The notes under the pieces are model-generated. The model made no database searches. It was given only the letters and a program-made list of their open reading frames with translations, and was not told the origin of the DNA. This document shows positions 30,938 to 38,928 of a DNA stretch of 64,000 nucleotides, in pieces (within the stretch, counting starts at the first letter, position 1; each line of letters starts with the position of its first letter). This DNA is from Candidatus Geocrenenecus huangii. Its GTDB lineage: Archaea; Thermoproteota; Nitrososphaeria_A; Caldarchaeales; Wolframiiraptoraceae. Made by a program: the position numbers and the translations under genes. The stretch is taken from assembly GCA_023254095.1 (NCBI GenBank), contig JALNLM010000006.1, positions 28,146-92,145 of the forward strand, in the 5' to 3' direction.

Positions 30938-31642
30938 TTATAGTAAGCGGAGATAACGTATGACTTTATCAGCAGCGTGCTCTACTAGTTCTTTTGGAAT
31001 ACCCTCTACTCCGTATGCAACTATCAATACCCTCTTTGTACTCCATCCTATCATTGTTCTTAAACTATCTCTATAGGGGAAGACATGTATTATACCTACA
31101 TCGTCTGATAAGACTATCGATCTCGGCTCAAGTTTTATTATTCTTCCAGTAAAATCTATGAACTCTTCACCTTGTCTTGCAAATCTTAAAACTGGTTCTC
31201 CAACGATCTTATCCAAGTCGTACAGTCCTATAGGTATGAGCGTTTCAGCTGATGCTAGATTTCCAGCATCTACAACATTATTTATTAATGGAAATGATGA
31301 TCCACCAAGTATCCTCCTGACTAGTGCTTCACTAGTAGGGCGAACCCTTGTTGGGTCAACGCCGATCTTCCAGAAAAAATCTCTAAGAGATTTGACAACA
31401 CGATTTTCTTTTAAATTTTCCAGAGTATAATTAATAGATGATCTGAGTTCTTTTACTAATTCTTCGAGATTTCTAGATTGTCTAACTTTTACGTCTACCT
31501 CTCTGGTTGAAATGTAGATTTCAGGAAATTCTTGAGCTAGCGTTGGCTCTATCTGAACTGTTACCATACGCGTTTCGTGGGTCTGCTCAACTCTTAAGGA
31601 TTCATTCTGGAGGTGGAGGCAAGTACGGAGGAGGTCTTTCAC
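30938..31642 (-). CDS. B3/B4 tRNA-binding domain protein (PheT B3_4-like, stand-alone)
   Basis: 'RPTSEALVRRILGGSSFPLINNVVDAGNLASAETLIPIGLYDLDKI' is the B3/4 core. The start is probably at the internal 'MVTVQIE'. Confidence 0.55.
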   Translation of the reverse strand: MKDLLRTCLHLQNESLRVEQTHETRMVTVQIEPTLAQEFPEIYISTREVDVKVRQSRNLEELVKELRSSINYTLENLKENRVVKSLRDFFWKIGVDPTRVRPTSEALVRRILGGSSFPLINNVVDAGNLASAETLIPIGLYDLDKIVGEPVLRFARQGEEFIDFTGRIIKLEPRSIVLSDDVGIIHVFPYRDSLRTMIGWSTKRVLIVAYGVEGIPKELVEHAADKVIRYLRLL

Positions 31643-32276
31643 GCTTGGCTTCCGGTATACTAAAGAACGATACAGCTGAGAATATTAATGATAGTAGGCC
31701 GAGTAATGCTATGCAACCTATTCCAATGAAGTATATGCCGAGTATGTTGAATATTTCTGAGGGTGTAGTAAAGAAAGGTGTGTAGAAGTCTACAGTCAAT
31801 GCTAGGAGTATGAATGATGCGATTATGATAATGCCCACGATCACGGTGATTATCCTCATCCATCCTGCTCTCTTAAACCATTTAACATCATATACAGTTG
31901 CCGCTCTGAAATGGGATACTAGCTCGAATATCCACACAACTAATGCTAAGACCGCAGATACTCCTGCCAATAACAAGAATAATCCAATAGTGTTTAGGAA
32001 TTCACTGAATAATCCTGGTGGAACACTAGGGTATCCTCCTAGAAGTGATTCACTCATTAAACTTCGCATGAAGGGGAACAAGATAGCTAATATAATCGCA
32101 CTCATTATCATGTTGATGAACATTAGTATGCCTGTTGCCTTAAAGATCCCTTGCTTAGTATCACTTCCAGCCATAATCCATGCAATTCCAACGATAATCA
32201 GCCCAACGAGATTTACAAACGGTATGAACATCAATATATATCCAATCCCACCCAGCCATTTATAACCTCTATTCAT
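31602..32276 (-). CDS. Polytopic membrane protein, hypothetical (C-terminal Pro-rich tail)
   Basis: Six or seven TM helices. Ends in 'PPPYLPPPPE'. Confidence 0.4.
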   Translation of the reverse strand: MNRGYKWLGGIGYILMFIPFVNLVGLIIVGIAWIMAGSDTKQGIFKATGILMFINMIMSAIILAILFPFMRSLMSESLLGGYPSVPPGLFSEFLNTIGLFLLLAGVSAVLALVVWIFELVSHFRAATVYDVKWFKRAGWMRIITVIVGIIIIASFILLALTVDFYTPFFTTPSEIFNILGIYFIGIGCIALLGLLSLIFSAVSFFSIPEAKRERPPPYLPPPPE

Positions 32277-32440: not shown

Positions 32441-33019
32441 TTACAATTTCTTGAAGAGTGGTAGGATCCCTAGATGATATACGTCCGTTCTGTATTCTCC
32501 TTCTACTAGTATTGCTGCTACTTTTGTTACTTTTCCTCCTGCTTCCTCAACTATTTGCTTCATAGCTCTTATCGTTTCCCCGGTGCTGATTATATCGTCA
32601 ACTATTCCTACTCTCTTTCCCGAGATTCTATCCTTGTATCTTCCATCTATGCAGAGAACCAGCTCATGTCTACTGGTTATCGGTTTAAACTTTACCACTA
32701 TAGGGTTCTTCATGAATGGCTTCATTTCTTTTCTACATACTATGTAGTATGGATGTCTGAGCTTAAGTGATATTTCATGAACTAAAGCTATACCCTTACT
32801 CTCAGCAGTCATTAAAACATCGGTGTCCTTAAGATACTCTGACAATATGTTTGCACAGTGAGCTATAAATTCTCTATCACCTAGACTATCAAAGTATGCT
32901 ATCCACGTATCTTCGCTCACTTGAACCATAGGTAATCTCCTCTTAAATCCCTGAATATTCAGTTCATAATACTCTTGACCAGTATACGGTAAGATACTAC
33001 TTCCGCTCATATCAAACAC
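32441..33019 (-). CDS. Type I phosphoribosyltransferase (purine/adenine PRTase-like)
   Basis: PRPP-binding motif 'VGIVDDIISTGETI'. Confidence 0.6.
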   Translation of the reverse strand: MFDMSGSSILPYTGQEYYELNIQGFKRRLPMVQVSEDTWIAYFDSLGDREFIAHCANILSEYLKDTDVLMTAESKGIALVHEISLKLRHPYYIVCRKEMKPFMKNPIVVKFKPITSRHELVLCIDGRYKDRISGKRVGIVDDIISTGETIRAMKQIVEEAGGKVTKVAAILVEGEYRTDVYHLGILPLFKKL

Positions 33020-33191
33020 CTAGACGTTTCAGCAAGTAAATACGATGTCTGAACTAATAATTAAAGATATTCTTCAACCGCAGATGACCATTGAGGAATC
33101 AATCACATTCTTTCAGAATACTCTCCACTTGATACTGTAAACTTTCCAGACTACTTATCTCACCTCGTCTAGAAGCTAATGATTAAAACTA

Positions 33192-34439
33192 TTGATTTTT
33201 GAAGAGACCACCGCATTGAGTAGATACGAGATTATCCAAAGCATCAGCATAAAAGATTCTTGGAAGTATGCCGAAGATGGATGGGGAGTAAGCCTACATA
33301 GAATCTGTTCTAGAACGGGCTCATTCCCACCTCCTCTTGCCTACTACTTCATAGTAAAATATTCGAGACCTGGAGACAAGGTCTTAGATCCTTTCAGTGG
33401 CAAGGGGACTGCGCCTCTAGAAGCATGTTTGAATGATAGAGTAGGAGTAGGAAACGATCTTGCTCCTGAGGCTTACGTTTTGACTAGGGCGAAGGTCAGA
33501 CCTGTGAGCTATCGTGATGTCTCGAGATGGGCTGAGTGGGCTAAGCCGAGAGTATTACGGGAAGCACATGAATACAGAATAGAAGATATCGAAGATGAAG
33601 TCAAGATATTCTACAATAAGTATACTTTAAAGCAGATACTTGCTGTCAGAGATTTAGTCGAAGAACTTGAGGATGAAGACTTATCAAACTTCCTGAAAGC
33701 ATTAATGCTTGGAATACTTCATGGGCCCTCTGGCATCCACCTAAGTATTAGGTGTTCTCACTCTTTTTCCATGTCTCCTGGATACGTGAAGAAATACATT
33801 AAAGAAAATCATCTAAAAAAACCTCGAAGGGATGTTCTGAAATGTCTAATGCTTAAAGCTGAGAGAGTCTTTAAGGACGGCATTCCAGCAGTAAAAGGAT
33901 ATGCTTTCATGAATGATGCTAGAAGTCTCCCCATAGAGGATGAAAGTATAGATTTCGTGATCACCTCTCCACCATACTTCAACATGCAGACGTACGCTTG
34001 GGACAATTGGCTCAGATTGTGGTTTCTCGGATACCGATACAAGGATGTAAGAGAAAAACTCTTCCATACAAATTCTCTAAAGAAATTCAATGCTTTCTTC
34101 AAAGATTGTCTAAGAGAGATCTTTAGAGTATTGAAATGGGATAGAGCTGCCGTGATAGTTCTTGGAACGGTTAAACTAAATGGTAAGATAATAAATATGG
34201 CTGAAGAAGTAGCTCCGATAGCTGAGGAAATTGGCTTCAATGTTCAATCGGTAATATATGATGGTATACCAAAGTCAAATAAATACCTATGGTACCTAGA
34301 TGGAGGCCAGGGAGTAGATAAAGAAGTAGTACTGATATTGACGAAAGGAGAATTCACTCCAAACATTATCCGGATAGATTGGAGGAATGCTAAGCCGACT
34401 TCTATAATTAAAGAATGTGTTGAGGTGATGGCGACATGA
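33192..34439 (+). CDS. DNA methyltransferase (alpha-class amino-MTase; N4-cytosine or N6-adenine)
   Basis: Motif I 'VLDPFSGKGTAPLEA' N-terminal and motif IV 'VITSPPY' C-terminal, with about 190 aa between them (target-recognition region). TTG start. Confidence 0.8.
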   Translation: MIFEETTALSRYEIIQSISIKDSWKYAEDGWGVSLHRICSRTGSFPPPLAYYFIVKYSRPGDKVLDPFSGKGTAPLEACLNDRVGVGNDLAPEAYVLTRAKVRPVSYRDVSRWAEWAKPRVLREAHEYRIEDIEDEVKIFYNKYTLKQILAVRDLVEELEDEDLSNFLKALMLGILHGPSGIHLSIRCSHSFSMSPGYVKKYIKENHLKKPRRDVLKCLMLKAERVFKDGIPAVKGYAFMNDARSLPIEDESIDFVITSPPYFNMQTYAWDNWLRLWFLGYRYKDVREKLFHTNSLKKFNAFFKDCLREIFRVLKWDRAAVIVLGTVKLNGKIINMAEEVAPIAEEIGFNVQSVIYDGIPKSNKYLWYLDGGQGVDKEVVLILTKGEFTPNIIRIDWRNAKPTSIIKECVEVMAT

Positions 34440-35548
34440 TATTTGAAACACATGGAGATACATGTAGGCTGGGTTACCTAAGACTGATTCCGTGCATAAT
34501 GGAGGATGATGAACCTAGAAGCTTCGACTTCATCTCAAGTATACTCTACGACATGGTTAAGAACGTAGGTGGAGTAGAAGCTGTTTCACGAAACACCATT
34601 GGATTGATTACGAGAGCGGTAAACTCTAGAAATTACGTTACGTTGGCCGCTGAAATGAATATAATTGATAGGAAGACTCAGAAACTTGGACATTTTGGGA
34701 AGATCTATCTAATCCTGAACTCCAGCAACTTGGTTAGAGAGTTTATTGAGGGCAGGTATCTTCCATCCATGAGAGAGTTGATAACCTTAAACGATGCTGA
34801 GAAGCTCTACTTCTTATGGGTTCTAGTCTCTACAGACTACCCCTTCATAGAACTGATAATTAGCTGGATTGTAGAGAAAGAAAAATTTACAAGACAAGAG
34901 GCCATGACTTATATAATGGAGGAGGCTTATCCTGCATCATTAAGAAAGATAGTGACCACGCTTCCTGAAAGCAAGAGGAAAAGTATCGAGTTGGAAGCTT
35001 CTGAAGCAGAAAAGTTTAGAGAGAAACGTCTATCTATAAAAGATAAAACAGAGTGGATTAAGACAAGCCTGTATGCGAAGTACCGTCATATAGCTCCCCC
35101 TCGCCTTGAATGGCTAGTGGACATAGGAGTCCTGAGGAGAGACGGTAGAGGTAAATACTCGGTAGATGAAAGATTGATAAAAGGTCTCGACAAGATCTCT
35201 AGGATTCCAAGGATGAGCTTGCATAAGGTGGAAGAATACATATTTGAAGAATTTTCAAAGACTATGTTCAGTAGCTTAAGGAATGCTGGAAGGTACGAAA
35301 TATCCAAGACAATAGTTGAAGCATATAACAGTCTTGAGAGATTTGGTCTTAGACCTATTAGACTAGACTACCTAGAAAAAGTTACAGCATTACTCTTGAT
35401 TGAAAAGAAATCCTATGCAAATATATCAATGATACATGATGTCTTCAATAGCCTGGCGATAAGATTTCCGGACAAGATCTATATCTCTCCAGCTCCCAGT
35501 GGAAGTATAAATGTTGCAAAGATTGATCTAACAGATACAGAGATCTAG
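34436..35548 (+). CDS. Unknown 370-aa protein translationally coupled to the MTase (candidate restriction/defence partner)
   Basis: ATG overlaps the MTase stop ('ATGA'). No PD-(D/E)xK, HNH, GIY-YIG or P-loop motif recognisable by eye. Confidence 0.4.
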   Translation: MIFETHGDTCRLGYLRLIPCIMEDDEPRSFDFISSILYDMVKNVGGVEAVSRNTIGLITRAVNSRNYVTLAAEMNIIDRKTQKLGHFGKIYLILNSSNLVREFIEGRYLPSMRELITLNDAEKLYFLWVLVSTDYPFIELIISWIVEKEKFTRQEAMTYIMEEAYPASLRKIVTTLPESKRKSIELEASEAEKFREKRLSIKDKTEWIKTSLYAKYRHIAPPRLEWLVDIGVLRRDGRGKYSVDERLIKGLDKISRIPRMSLHKVEEYIFEEFSKTMFSSLRNAGRYEISKTIVEAYNSLERFGLRPIRLDYLEKVTALLLIEKKSYANISMIHDVFNSLAIRFPDKIYISPAPSGSINVAKIDLTDTEI

Positions 35549-35594: not shown

Positions 35595-36887
35595 TTGATA
35601 TATTTATATCATGCTTTTTATAACTATGTTATTAGAAATATGGTTAAGGTATCAGAATTCCTGAAAGAGCATGGTAAACCTCCTAGAGAAGTGTATCTGG
35701 ACCACGAGAATTGTGGATGGGTTCCGCCAGAAGTCGTTGAGGCGATGTTACCATACTTTAACAAAAAGGGATACGGGCACCCCTCGATAACCAATCTGCC
35801 TGGATGGGAAGCATATGAAGTTATAGAGTCTACAATCGAGAAAATAAATAAAAGCATTAATGCTAGAGATGGAGAATTAGTCTTAACTCATAATGGAACT
35901 GAAGCAAACAATTTAGCAATCATAGGTTCAGCTCTCGCAAGAAGCAAAGAAAGAAATAAAATCATAATATCTGCTATCGAGCATGTAAGTATTATTTTTC
36001 CCGCAAGGTCTCTTGAGGAGAATGGTTATAGAGTTGTCATGATCCCAGTAGACAAAGAAGGTTTTGTCGACCCATACATGTTAAGTACGTTGATCGATAA
36101 TGAGACTCTAATGGTAAGCATTCAAATGGTGAATCATGAGATAGGGACGATACAGAATATAAAAGAATTGGTAGAGACCGTGAAAGACAAGGATGATCGA
36201 ATAATTTTCCACACAGACGCAGTCGACGCTTATGGCAGAATAAATATCGATGTAGAAGAACTAGGGATAGACCTGTTAACGCTCAGCAGTCATAAGATTC
36301 ATGGTCCTAGAGGTGTCGGGGCACTATACGTAAGAGAAGGACTGAAATTGAAGCCAATAATGCATGGAGCCCTTAGCACTCAAAAGATGTGGCCAAGTGT
36401 AGAGAACGTTCCCGCAATCGCAGGGTTCAGTAGGGCGATCGATTTGGCTTTTACAAACTTTGAAGATAACGTTGAGAAGATGAAGATGCTTAGAGATATG
36501 CTGATAGAAGGCATATTAGAAGAAGTTCCAGAAGTATTGTTAAATGGTCCAACAGGAGAGAAGAGAGCTCCCGACAATGTAAACATGAGCTTCCTCCATG
36601 TCGAGGGAGAATCTATAACAGTAGAATTAAGTTTGAGAGGAATATACGTTTCAAGTGGAAGCGCTTGTACGAGCAGAGTCTTAGAGCCTAGCCACGTGAT
36701 CCTAGCTATAGGTAGAAAGTATGAGGAAGCGCATGGAAGTATACTCTTCAAAACATCTAGATATCAAAAAGTAGAAGACATAGATTATGTCTTGTCGCAG
36801 GTGCCTGCAGCGATCGAGAGGCTTAGAACGATAAGCCCATTAGTTAGAGAAAGTCGAGGAATACTCAAGAAGATGGTGGGAACATGA
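35595..36887 (+). CDS. Cysteine desulfurase (NifS/IscS-like class V aminotransferase)
   Basis: 'SSHKIHGPRGVGALYV' PLP-Lys region and 'SSGSACTS' catalytic Cys loop. The start is probably at the internal 'MVKVSEF'. Confidence 0.8.
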   Translation: MIYLYHAFYNYVIRNMVKVSEFLKEHGKPPREVYLDHENCGWVPPEVVEAMLPYFNKKGYGHPSITNLPGWEAYEVIESTIEKINKSINARDGELVLTHNGTEANNLAIIGSALARSKERNKIIISAIEHVSIIFPARSLEENGYRVVMIPVDKEGFVDPYMLSTLIDNETLMVSIQMVNHEIGTIQNIKELVETVKDKDDRIIFHTDAVDAYGRINIDVEELGIDLLTLSSHKIHGPRGVGALYVREGLKLKPIMHGALSTQKMWPSVENVPAIAGFSRAIDLAFTNFEDNVEKMKMLRDMLIEGILEEVPEVLLNGPTGEKRAPDNVNMSFLHVEGESITVELSLRGIYVSSGSACTSRVLEPSHVILAIGRKYEEAHGSILFKTSRYQKVEDIDYVLSQVPAAIERLRTISPLVRESRGILKKMVGT

Positions 36888-37381
36888 GTACAAGAACACC
36901 TCTTATCTATACTCCCAAGATACTTGATTTATTTAGGAATCCAAGAAATCTCGGCAGAATGGAAGATGCAACAGTTTCCTCCCAGGCCGGTAGCCCAGCA
37001 TGTGGTGATGTAATAACAATATATCTAAAGATCGATGGAGAAAAGATAACAGATGCATCATTTGAGAGTTATGGATGTGCAGCGAACATCGCCGCTGCGA
37101 GCATCATCACAGAAATGGTTAGGAATAAGACTCTTAAAGAAGCATGGAGCATCACTTGGGAAGACGTAACCAACGAGCTTGGAGGTTTACCATCGATAAA
37201 GTATCATTGTAGCATTCTGGCTGTCGGAGGATTAAAGAGGGCCATTAGAAAGTATTTTGAAGAAGTTAGAAGAGAACGTCCAGAATGGCTTCCAGAGAAT
37301 CTCAGCAAAGAAGAAAGACAAGCTTTAGAGGAAGAAGAATTGATTGAGAAAATCTATAGGAAGTATGGAGTTGCGCCATGA
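36884..37381 (+). CDS. IscU/NifU-like Fe-S scaffold with C-terminal helical extension
   Basis: Three conserved Cys ('PACGD', 'YGCAAN', 'HCSILA'). Overlapping start. Confidence 0.75.
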   Translation: MSTRTPLIYTPKILDLFRNPRNLGRMEDATVSSQAGSPACGDVITIYLKIDGEKITDASFESYGCAANIAAASIITEMVRNKTLKEAWSITWEDVTNELGGLPSIKYHCSILAVGGLKRAIRKYFEEVRRERPEWLPENLSKEERQALEEEELIEKIYRKYGVAP

Positions 37382-37617
37382 TGGAGGAGTATTTTATAGA
37401 TCTTGGTGAAAAGAAGCCCGGATGCACGGAAAACCCTGTAATTAGATTGACGCAGATGCTTTTAAGGGTAGAAGAAGGAAAAGGAGTACTAAAAGTGGCT
37501 TCAGATGAAAGAGAAATACCATTAAAGATACTTGAAATGCTTGCAGACAAGAGAAACTTAAAGCTTCAAGTCCTAGAGAAGAACGGCACGAAGGTAATCG
37601 TCCTCTACTCTAAGTAA
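37378..37617 (+). CDS. TusA-like small sulfur-carrier/sulfurtransferase-fold protein (divergent)
   Basis: 79 aa with predicted beta-alpha-beta-alpha-beta-beta topology. A single Cys at the end of beta1 ('KPGCTENP') instead of the canonical CPxP. Confidence 0.4.
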   Translation: MMEEYFIDLGEKKPGCTENPVIRLTQMLLRVEEGKGVLKVASDEREIPLKILEMLADKRNLKLQVLEKNGTKVIVLYSK

Positions 37618-37689
37618 ATTATGCCAATATTAATCGAACATGATTGTGCCATTTAGAAGATCTTATATTTATGACGACGTTAATAGTAG

Positions 37690-38928
37690 ATGATGTGTTT
37701 TTTGAATATTAATGAGATTCGTAAGGATTTCCCGATCTTGGAAAGGAAGATAAGAGGTAAAAGTTTAGTTTATCTTGATAGCGCTGCATCATCTCTTAAG
37801 CCTATACAAGTTGTCGAAGCTATTAGAGAGTTCTATTTAATAGAATACAGTAATATTCATAGAGGGGTTCATTACCTTAGTCAGTCGGCTACGTCAAGAT
37901 ACGAAGAATCTAGAGAGAAAATTGCCAAATTCATAAATGCGCATAGTTCCGAAGAAATAATCTTCACCTATGGTACGACCGACTCGCTTAATATGCTTGC
38001 ATATGGTTATGGTTTGAGAGTACTCAAACCTGGAGACAAGATACTTTTAACAATTATGGAGCATCACAGCAATATTCTTCCATGGATGTATATATCCACA
38101 CTTACTGGAGCGAAGATAGATTACATAGACATCACGGATGAAGGGGAGATTGATTATGACGAACTTGACGAAAAAATAAACGAGAAGACCAAGATTGTCT
38201 CAATAACGCATATGTCTAACGTTCTTGGAACGATAATCGACGTTAAGAAGATCGCTAAGAAAATACATGAAGTAGGAGGTGTGATAATAGTTGATGGAGC
38301 ACAATCAGTCCCACATATGCCAATAAACGTTAGAGAACTAGAAATAGACTTCTTGGCATTCAGTGGACATAAAATGCTTGGGCCGACGGGTATAGGCGTA
38401 CTATGGATCAAGCGAGACTTGCTAGATGACATGCATCCTCCCAGACTCGGCGGTGGATCTATTAGAGATGTTACACTAGATGACTTTACCTTCCTAGATC
38501 CACCACATCGTTTTGAAGCTGGAACACCTAATATAGCTGGTGTAATAGGTTTAGCAAGAGCGGTAGAGTATCTAGAGAAGATCGGGATGAATAATGTGAG
38601 AAGGCATGAAGAAGAATTAACTAGTTATGCTTTGAAAGAACTTGATAGGTTTAAGGGTCAGATCGATGTGTATGGGCCTAGCAGTGTATCGATTCGTGGA
38701 GGAATAATAGCCTTCAATGTCAAGGGTCTAGACCCGAATATGGTTGGGGGCTTGCTTGATAGCTTTGGTATAGCTGTAAGAACGGGAAAACATTGCGCTC
38801 ATCCTCTACATCAAAGATTAAGTATAGATGGGTCGGTTAGGGCAAGCATATACATCTACAACACAAAAGAAGAAATAGCCCTCCTTACATCAGCACTAGA
38901 AGAGATAACTAACGCTACAATTAGATGA
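37690..38928 (+). CDS. Cysteine desulfurase / selenocysteine lyase (SufS/CsdA-like)
   Basis: 'FSGHKMLGPTGIGVLW' PLP-Lys block and 'RTGKHCAHPL' catalytic Cys block. Confidence 0.8.
   Translation: MMCFLNINEIRKDFPILERKIRGKSLVYLDSAASSLKPIQVVEAIREFYLIEYSNIHRGVHYLSQSATSRYEESREKIAKFINAHSSEEIIFTYGTTDSLNMLAYGYGLRVLKPGDKILLTIMEHHSNILPWMYISTLTGAKIDYIDITDEGEIDYDELDEKINEKTKIVSITHMSNVLGTIIDVKKIAKKIHEVGGVIIVDGAQSVPHMPINVRELEIDFLAFSGHKMLGPTGIGVLWIKRDLLDDMHPPRLGGGSIRDVTLDDFTFLDPPHRFEAGTPNIAGVIGLARAVEYLEKIGMNNVRRHEEELTSYALKELDRFKGQIDVYGPSSVSIRGGIIAFNVKGLDPNMVGGLLDSFGIAVRTGKHCAHPLHQRLSIDGSVRASIYIYNTKEEIALLTSALEEITNATIR

Follow-up and report, generated by a model that had tools for sequence, protein, structure and literature searches.

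In the 64,000 nucleotides (nt) of contig JALNLM010000006.1 of Candidatus Geocrenenecus huangii (Caldarchaeales) analysed here as the window, a gene encoding a DNA methyltransferase (MTase) overlaps a downstream gene encoding a protein of 370 amino acids (aa), referred to as the partner. The MTase open reading frame (ORF) spans 33192-34439 on the + strand (415 aa, TTG start) and the partner ORF spans 34436-35548 on the + strand. The pair is tentatively read as a chromosomally fixed, defence-derived module in which the MTase writes a mark on DNA and the partner, a site-reading and non-cutting DNA-binding protein, recognizes it, and a probability of about 0.45 is assigned to this reading. It is drawn from the gene structure, the family of the MTase, the predicted fold of the partner, its homology to proteins of defence operons, the strict synteny of the two genes and their vertical co-descent. 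A modification enzyme with a non-catalytic DNA-recognition subunit is of a kind already known; no description of an MTase-coupled, order-wide archaeal version was found in the literature, and the superfamily of the partner is unnamed as far as Pfam, NCBIfam and PADLOC show. An earlier note, made from the sequence alone, had taken the pair for an inserted restriction-modification (R-M)-like cassette with a candidate novel restriction or defence partner. Its observations at the locus were confirmed and its interpretation was supported in part, the partner being novel and linked to defence systems.

The stop codon of the MTase gene and the start codon of the partner gene overlap in ATGA (34436-34439, + strand), indicating translational coupling, and a Shine-Dalgarno-like GAGGTGA (34422-34428, + strand) is located inside the 3' end of the MTase gene, 7 nt upstream of the partner ATG. 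In all 43 other loci with upstream DNA available, the MTase gene was directly 5' of the partner gene, and the identical 4-nt overlap was kept in 32 of them. The overlap is therefore not a chance arrangement, and the translational coupling proposed in the earlier note is supported.

No match to the partner was found in Pfam, NCBIfam (only at E>0.02), PADLOC or the sequences of the Protein Data Bank (PDB), and sequence and profile searches of the PDB with the partner family returned chance-level matches only (Csm2, E 0.019; dynein light chain, E 0.16). No homology to a housekeeping family was found either. The AlphaFold2 (AF2) model, built on 51 homologues, has a mean predicted local distance difference test (pLDDT) score of 92 and a predicted template modelling (pTM) score of 0.92. 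Helices make up nearly the whole of it apart from three beta-hairpins (residues 77-84, 233-243 and 348-363), a beta-sheet core of the PD-(D/E)xK type is absent, and the model is read as three winged-helix units. Unit 1 (34463-34690, + strand; aa ~10-85) consists of helices 12-21, 30-42 and 61-73 and the hairpin 77-84, and contains the RLGY motif (R11-L12-G13-Y14) that occurs throughout the superfamily described below. Unit 2 (34793-35170, + strand; aa ~120-245) has a helical insert and a wing at 233-243, and carries the most conserved motif of the partner, KYRHIAPPRLEWLVD; the equivalent of this motif in the related family X (see below) gave a weak alignment to the winged helix-turn-helix (wHTH) protein Sso10a (E 0.045). 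Unit 3 (35219-35530, + strand; aa ~262-365) contains the terminal hairpin 348-363.

Conservation extending over the entire superfamily is limited to R11-L12-G13 in unit 1, D134, P222-R223 and D229 in unit 2, and G356 in unit 3, and these residues do not look like a catalytic site. A larger set of residues, including E4, H6, C10, N66, Y67, R153, E162, Y165, R198, W207, Y213, Y216, H218, E225 and R238, is invariant in the partner family without being conserved superfamily-wide, and these family-specific residues include an aromatic cluster and, near the N terminus, the motif E-T-H-G-D/E-x-C-R. Neither profile nor fold searches, the PADLOC restriction endonuclease models included, revealed a nuclease, an ATPase or any other enzymatic domain in the partner; PD-(D/E)xK, HNH, GIY-YIG, phospholipase D (PLD) and half-pipe nuclease domains were all looked for. 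The absence of PD-(D/E)xK, HNH, GIY-YIG, PLD and ATPase signatures, which had been judged by eye, was thus borne out in Pfam, NCBIfam, PADLOC, the PDB and the fold search. On the basis of the model, the partner is predicted to be a triple winged-helix DNA-binding protein of an unnamed family without a nuclease domain.

In the Foldseek comparison of the model with the PDB, the only whole-length matches were to Nt.BspD6I (2ewf/5liq/6qnz), of which eight chains occupied ranks 1-8, the top three with probabilities of 0.99-1.0, E 7e-3 to 1.4e-2 and template modelling (TM) scores of 0.34-0.38. The other matches with appreciable probability were mostly single winged-helix domains (ORC, Cdt1, LOTUS and Fur/Zur). 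Nt.BspD6I is a site-specific nickase of the FokI type whose N-terminal half is a recognition module of three subdomains, and the partner resembles it in its multi-winged-helix, mostly helical recognition architecture of ~370 residues. In contrast to Nt.BspD6I, the partner has no C-terminal PD-(D/E)xK cleavage domain and no gene for a small catalytic subunit is found near it. At 10-12% identity and TM 0.34-0.38, the domain arrangement differs and homology is not established. The suggestion that the partner has no recognisable fold, or is an endonuclease of novel fold, has accordingly given way to a confident multi-winged-helix model with whole-length Nt.BspD6I matches and no catalytic domain found.

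The DNA-binding domain of FokI, DndG/DptG and SspB have been placed in one 'triple wHTH' class by the Aravind laboratory, and its members were proposed as target-recognition or modification-discriminating subunits, SspB being the proposed recognition subunit of its modification module (PMC10853773). The same paper describes 'rapidly evolving proteins with 2-4 wHTH domains' in related operons, and mentions a methylase-associated domain, 'MTaX1', with permuted N4C methylases, which is noted here as a lead only (PMC10853773). Like DndG/DptG and SspB, the partner is a stand-alone protein, predicted to have three winged helices, that is encoded beside a DNA-modification gene, and its relatives are themselves encoded in Ssp operons. 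Unlike in the setting of DndG and SspB, the modification here is predicted to be methylation by a single MTase, with no ATPase or nuclease partners. An SspB homologue was considered and rejected at the sequence level (hhalign against an SspB alignment, probability 0.6%), and the partner had no DUF4007 or DndG match in Pfam or PADLOC.

The profile of the partner family was searched against 1.8 billion representative proteins, giving 227 matches. Outside this family, proteins of 520-580 aa, referred to as X, were matched by the profile over their last ~350 residues (hmmsearch E 1e-14 to 1e-6; hhalign 99.4%, E 7e-22, 316 columns), and X and the partner both carry the RLGY and PR(L)(E/N)W(L)xD motifs. 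The X genes were located in 47 bacterial genome loci, mostly of Bacteroidota (L015-L061, e.g. L015: 814-9580), and in at least 40 of the 47 the gene order was SspB-SspC-SspD-X-Y-Z, where X is ~547 aa, Y is a ~370-aa AAA/BrxD-like ATPase and Z is ~280 aa. A PbeA-like helicase-nuclease gene and/or an SspA-like gene was often near. X, Y and Z have no family name in Pfam, NCBIfam or PADLOC. The X-Y-Z genes also occurred with no SspBCD gene in the stretch read, in locus L044 and on the short contig L052. The model of X is likewise confident (pLDDT 91), with Nt.BspD6I again near the top of its fold matches.

X and the partner thus share a homologous core, and both are encoded immediately 3' of modification genes, but X differs in carrying an extra ~190-aa N-terminal alpha/beta domain, in always being accompanied by the AAA ATPase Y and by Z, and in its sporadic distribution in Bacteroidota as against the lineage-wide one of the partner. 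The N-terminal domain of X was considered as a nuclease and rejected, its confident model giving no nuclease match in the fold search. PbeABCD was also considered and rejected: of its genes, only that of the PbeA-like helicase was seen, in roughly half of the Bacteroidota loci. The published description gives SspF a Walker A motif and SspH a C-terminus like that of FtsK (PMC8092258). X-Y-Z is not obviously SspE or SspFGH, the latter being set apart by description only, because in X-Y-Z it is the middle gene that encodes the ATPase and no FtsK-like protein was seen. It is a candidate for an uncharacterised phosphorothioate-linked effector module.

Further branches of the superfamily were found beside ATPases. 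Relatives at middle distance adjoin BrxD-like ATPases, in one locus (L066) with a metallo-beta-lactamase/RMMBL-type hydrolase also near. A remote branch of ~410 aa is encoded in operons with BrxD (Pfam 1.7e-57), a HerA/FtsK (mad8-like) ATPase and a small PLD-like protein, and its loci (L107-L132, e.g. L116: 306-7239 and L124: 1351-7066) contain a second BrxD-like ATPase too; L124 also carries DpdB, and L116 has a weak radical-SAM-like match. No whole-operon match to any named system was found for this multi-ATPase, defence-type operon. Judged by homology and gene context, members of the superfamily recur as non-enzymatic subunits in defence complexes linked to modification. In the Caldarchaeales loci the MTase-partner pair has no ATPase, nuclease or Ssp gene in its company: in the window and 50 Caldarchaeales loci there were no homologues of Y, Z, SspB, SspC or SspD, and neither the 3'-phosphoadenosine 5'-phosphosulfate (PAPS)-reductase-like enzyme DndC/SspD nor the ATPase DndD/SspC was found.

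The MTase matched Pfam PF01555 N6_N4_Mtase with 53.2 bits (cutoff 26.7, E 5e-14) and the PADLOC MTase_II model at 3.6e-35 over aa 27-356, which is almost its full length. Motif I, DPFSGKGT, for binding of S-adenosylmethionine (SAM), lies at 33387-33410 (+ strand; aa 66-73) and the catalytic motif IV, SPPY, follows ~185 aa later at 33966-33977 (+ strand; aa 259-262), in the alpha-type order that the earlier note had recognized. The MTase is permuted relative to the PF01555 model, with aa 42-94 matching profile positions 163-215. Among 33 orthologues, motif I is invariant or nearly so and motif IV is invariant. A near-invariant block follows SPPY (Q266 and TYAWDNWLRLWFLGY, aa 267-281), and mean conservation over residues 261-280 is 0.97. 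An SPPY motif is presumably a sign of N4-methylcytosine (m4C), by analogy with known motif IV variants, and the MTase is probably of the m4C type. The region between motifs I and IV (~150 aa) is moderately to well conserved and is taken to be the MTase's own target-recognition region. The true start is probably TTG 33216, giving 407 aa, because a 100% identical database protein (P0101) is 407 aa long, conservation among orthologues begins only near residue 22, and a TATA-like ATTAAAA (33182-33188, + strand) lies ~30 nt upstream of this TTG. The ATTAAAA, read from the sequence of the intergenic region between the MTase gene and the upstream adenine phosphoribosyltransferase gene (apt), is a possible archaeal promoter element for the pair; a scan for bacterial promoters and terminators was uninformative, the host being an archaeon.

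MTase homologues were numerous (n=1671), and the best 120 of the 1671 were 50-100% identical. One from Bathyarchaeota (L009, 1-11218), 52% identical, has no partner gene beside it. Its surroundings resemble a defence island, with an AIPR protein, a second N6_N4 MTase and a MarR/AbiEii pair. Two unannotated neighbours of this homologue, one of 370 aa (divergent) and one of 316 aa (convergent), could be its own restriction genes; they were compared with the partner and rejected as relatives (hhalign probability <1%). The occurrence of a partner-less MTase among defence genes suggests a defence origin of the enzyme and shows that it can exist without the partner. Together with the near-full-length match to a Type II MTase model, this makes the MTase look autonomous.

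The homologues of the partner (n=100) are 30-100% identical to it and 360-386 aa long, and all those with a source name belong to metagenome-assembled genomes (MAGs) of Nitrososphaerota, Aigarchaeota or Caldarchaeales, several of them on contigs of 1.2-1.5 Mb. Pairwise distances of the MTase and the partner are strongly correlated (r 0.96, 33 unique pairs), with the partner diverging 1.45x faster. The apt gene, which in the window is located at 32441-33019 on the - strand (192 aa; NCBIfam PRK07322, 193 bits vs cutoff 143), stands 112-277 nt upstream of the MTase gene, in one orientation or the other, at 28 of the 44 related loci. Over 19 loci, MTase distances followed those of apt with r 0.96 and at 1.1x its rate, and partner distances with r 0.93 and at 1.55x. 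The orientation of apt depends on the clade, being co-directional in one group (L074, L077-L082, L084, L103) and divergent in others (the window, L001-L003, L007-L008, L068-L072). Since apt stays adjacent in different orientations, the adjacency has survived an inversion. The genes downstream of the pair vary between lineages and are ordinary metabolic genes.

Neither gene departs from the rest of the window in guanine-cytosine (GC) content or in codon usage, so that the foreign composition for which a check had been suggested is not seen, and the partner was not found in IMG/VR viral contigs, PLSDB plasmids or GenBank phages. An inserted R-M-like cassette, as proposed in the earlier note, is contradicted by this native composition, by the lack of copies in these mobile-element collections and by the co-divergence with apt. 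The pair looks like one inherited vertically through Caldarchaeales, an order of archaea from hot springs, and fixed in the chromosome, not like a recently acquired restriction cassette. Far from never being syntenic, the two genes were kept together in every related locus (43/43). In one locus (L101, 1230-3488) the MTase gene is frameshifted near 1740 and the partner gene lacks its first ~46 codons; with 13 Ns in the locus, an assembly artefact is more likely there than decay of the gene.

On the reading proposed here, the module would descend from modification-based defence systems. The MTase would act as an autonomous SAM-dependent N4-cytosine (or N6-adenine) DNA methyltransferase with its own target-recognition region, marking a site probably unchanged across the order. 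The partner would be made stoichiometrically from the same mRNA by coupled translation, as a non-nuclease, sequence-specific DNA binder built like a FokI-type recognition domain and related by homology to the subunits with which multi-protein defence complexes recognize DNA. Its likeliest task would be to bind the target sites of the MTase and tell methylated from unmethylated DNA, and the outcome would come about through occupancy, by blocking or marking the DNA, or through recruitment of a host factor, and not through cleavage of its own. The earlier note had also named a specificity or control protein and an MTase-associated defence effector among the possible roles of the partner, and these come close to what the evidence favours.

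Several points weigh against this write-and-read module. The DNA binding of the partner and its discrimination of methylation are predictions, and the Nt.BspD6I match is modest (E 7e-3, TM 0.34-0.38), with no aligned part of the target given by Foldseek. There is no profile link between the partner and SspB (hhalign 0.6%), and no PADLOC model matched the partner. The invariant polar and aromatic residues specific to the partner family could form an unrecognised active site. The tight coupling and co-evolution fit a physical complex of MTase and partner equally well. Joint transfer of apt, the MTase and the partner is not formally excluded either, since vertical descent was measured on the apt-containing locus itself.

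A physical complex is the substance of the explanation that survives next best, in which the two proteins are a two-subunit methyltransferase and the partner, as a DNA-targeting or loading subunit in a stable complex, sets or sharpens the methylation site without any restriction or read-out, on the model of HsdS for HsdM or of SspB as proposed for SspCD. We regard this as possible but rather unlikely. The 4-nt overlap with an internal Shine-Dalgarno sequence would suit it, as would the strict co-occurrence and correlated evolution (r 0.96) typical of interacting subunits, the lack of an effector domain in the partner and an inheritance as vertical as that of housekeeping genes, and triple-wHTH proteins such as SspB have been proposed as recognition subunits of modification complexes (PMC10853773). 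However, the MTase keeps the conserved ~150-aa region between its motifs that is taken for its own target recognition, it matches a stand-alone Type II MTase model almost over its full length, and its 52%-identical Bathyarchaeota homologue has no partner. Moreover, the relatives of the partner in Ssp operons are present besides SspB and tied to an ATPase module that can occur without SspBCD in the stretch read. A reader is favoured over a targeting subunit for three of these reasons: the Ssp operons, as the Bacteroidota SspBCD-X-Y-Z loci show, already encode SspB, the proposed recognition subunit; it is the ATPase module, and not the modification genes, with which relatives of the partner travel; and a close homologue of the MTase occurs without a partner.

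A restriction partner appears improbable. The 370-aa protein would damage or block unmethylated DNA through a cryptic active site, or with a nuclease encoded elsewhere, and the pair would be an unusually stable and addictive Type II-like R-M system, in which post-segregational killing could explain why the two genes have never been split. An MTase gene that comes first and is translationally coupled to the next gene is the classical arrangement of R-M systems, and the pair is like a Type II R-M pair in its N6/N4 MTase, in the adjacent, co-directional partner gene with stop/start overlap, and in a partner that is otherwise unannotated. Other members of the superfamily belong to restriction-type modules, the partner is predicted to fold like that half of a Type IIS enzyme which recognizes DNA, and the many family-specific invariant E/H/D/R/Y residues, including those of E-T-H-G-D/E-x-C-R, keep a cryptic enzyme in consideration. 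Against this, no nuclease fold or motif was found in any profile or fold search, the model of the partner lacks a PD-(D/E)xK-type beta-sheet core, and no nuclease or ATPase gene is conserved nearby. Order-wide vertical inheritance is atypical of R-M systems, yet the pair shows it, beside apt and at near-housekeeping rates. Type II R-M systems typically have a sporadic, mobile distribution and a foreign composition; the MTase-partner pair is inherited with the chromosome, with no mobility or patchiness in the loci examined and no copies in the viral, plasmid and phage collections.

Avoidance of palindromes in the window was also considered as a trace of restriction. GTAC is depleted with an observed/expected ratio (O/E) of 0.50 (91 sites vs 183 expected) and GATC with an O/E of 0.69, which would be in line with a restriction partner, but the depletion is not common to all carriers of the pair, among which O/E ranges from 0.13 to 1.0 for GATC and from 0.33 to 0.97 for GTAC. 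In several related Caldarchaeales loci (L002, L007, L070, L072, L075 and L089 among them) the GATC O/E is 0.13-0.41, and GATC is not depleted in L004, L012, L077 and L090. Because carriers do not share it, the depletion is not assignable to the pair and was rejected as a signal of the MTase target site; it suggests a lineage-specific restriction pressure unrelated to the pair.

It is very improbable that the adjacency is an operon of convenience, the partner then being a chromatin protein or a winged-helix transcription factor with no functional tie to methylation: the single winged-helix matches to ORC, Cdt1, Fur-family and PadR-type proteins and the housekeeping nature of all downstream neighbours in the window would allow it, but all 43 loci keep the two genes syntenic amid varying flanks, homologous proteins elsewhere stand in DNA-modification and defence operons, and the partner co-evolves with the MTase (r 0.96).

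Pairs of an orphan MTase and a methylation reader are known in Dam with SeqA/MutH and in CcrM with GcrA, where a DNA-binding protein without catalytic activity reads the mark made by a lineage-wide, vertically inherited MTase. Methylated sites can be recognized by winged-helix domains, for instance the methyl-specific one of DpnI. Readers of the SeqA/MutH/GcrA type are not encoded in an operon overlapping the MTase gene and are unrelated in sequence, and in this comparison the reader function of the partner is a predicted one. More specifically, the pair may have been domesticated in Caldarchaeales as an archaeal epigenetic writer-reader pair for a cellular task, which is a speculative extension and, as it stands, rather doubtful. 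Such tasks could include the marking of self or replicated DNA for replication control, for repair-strand choice or for chromatin organisation. If so, the pair would correspond in function to Dam-SeqA or CcrM-GcrA while being encoded in an operon and drawn from a protein superfamily not yet described.

If the write-and-read module holds, it would give a place to a DNA-recognition superfamily that is absent from Pfam, NCBIfam and PADLOC, and whose branches occur in Ssp operons, in BrxD and HerA/FtsK operons, once beside DpdB, and here with a plain methyltransferase. In that event a recognition subunit of defence type would seem, as is rare, to have been pared down to a module of two genes, and purifying selection would have maintained this module throughout an archaeal order at rates near those of a housekeeping enzyme. 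Such conservation is expected of an epigenetic writer-reader pair and not of a selfish R-M cassette.

The flanks of the pair in the window are as the earlier note had described them, with a phosphoribosyltransferase gene upstream (apt, by its PRK07322 match) and a NifS-like gene on the 3' side of the partner, where a NifU gene was identified as well, both by Pfam. This downstream region (35595-38928) encodes a class-V aminotransferase (cysteine desulfurase-like, 430 aa), NifU (165 aa) and a second class-V aminotransferase (412 aa), with a 79-aa ORF without a Pfam match between NifU and the second aminotransferase. In phosphorothioate systems, the DndA/SspA component is likewise a cysteine desulfurase. 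The cysteine desulfurase gene beside the pair is probably a coincidence, because the NifS/NifU adjacency was not seen beside the pair in other Caldarchaeales loci. On the other side of apt, a gene at 31602-32276 (- strand) encodes a 224-aa multi-pass membrane protein with a proline-rich PPPYLPPPPE tail and no Pfam match, and it shares 41 nt with the start of a gene for a B3/4-domain protein at 30938-31642 (- strand).

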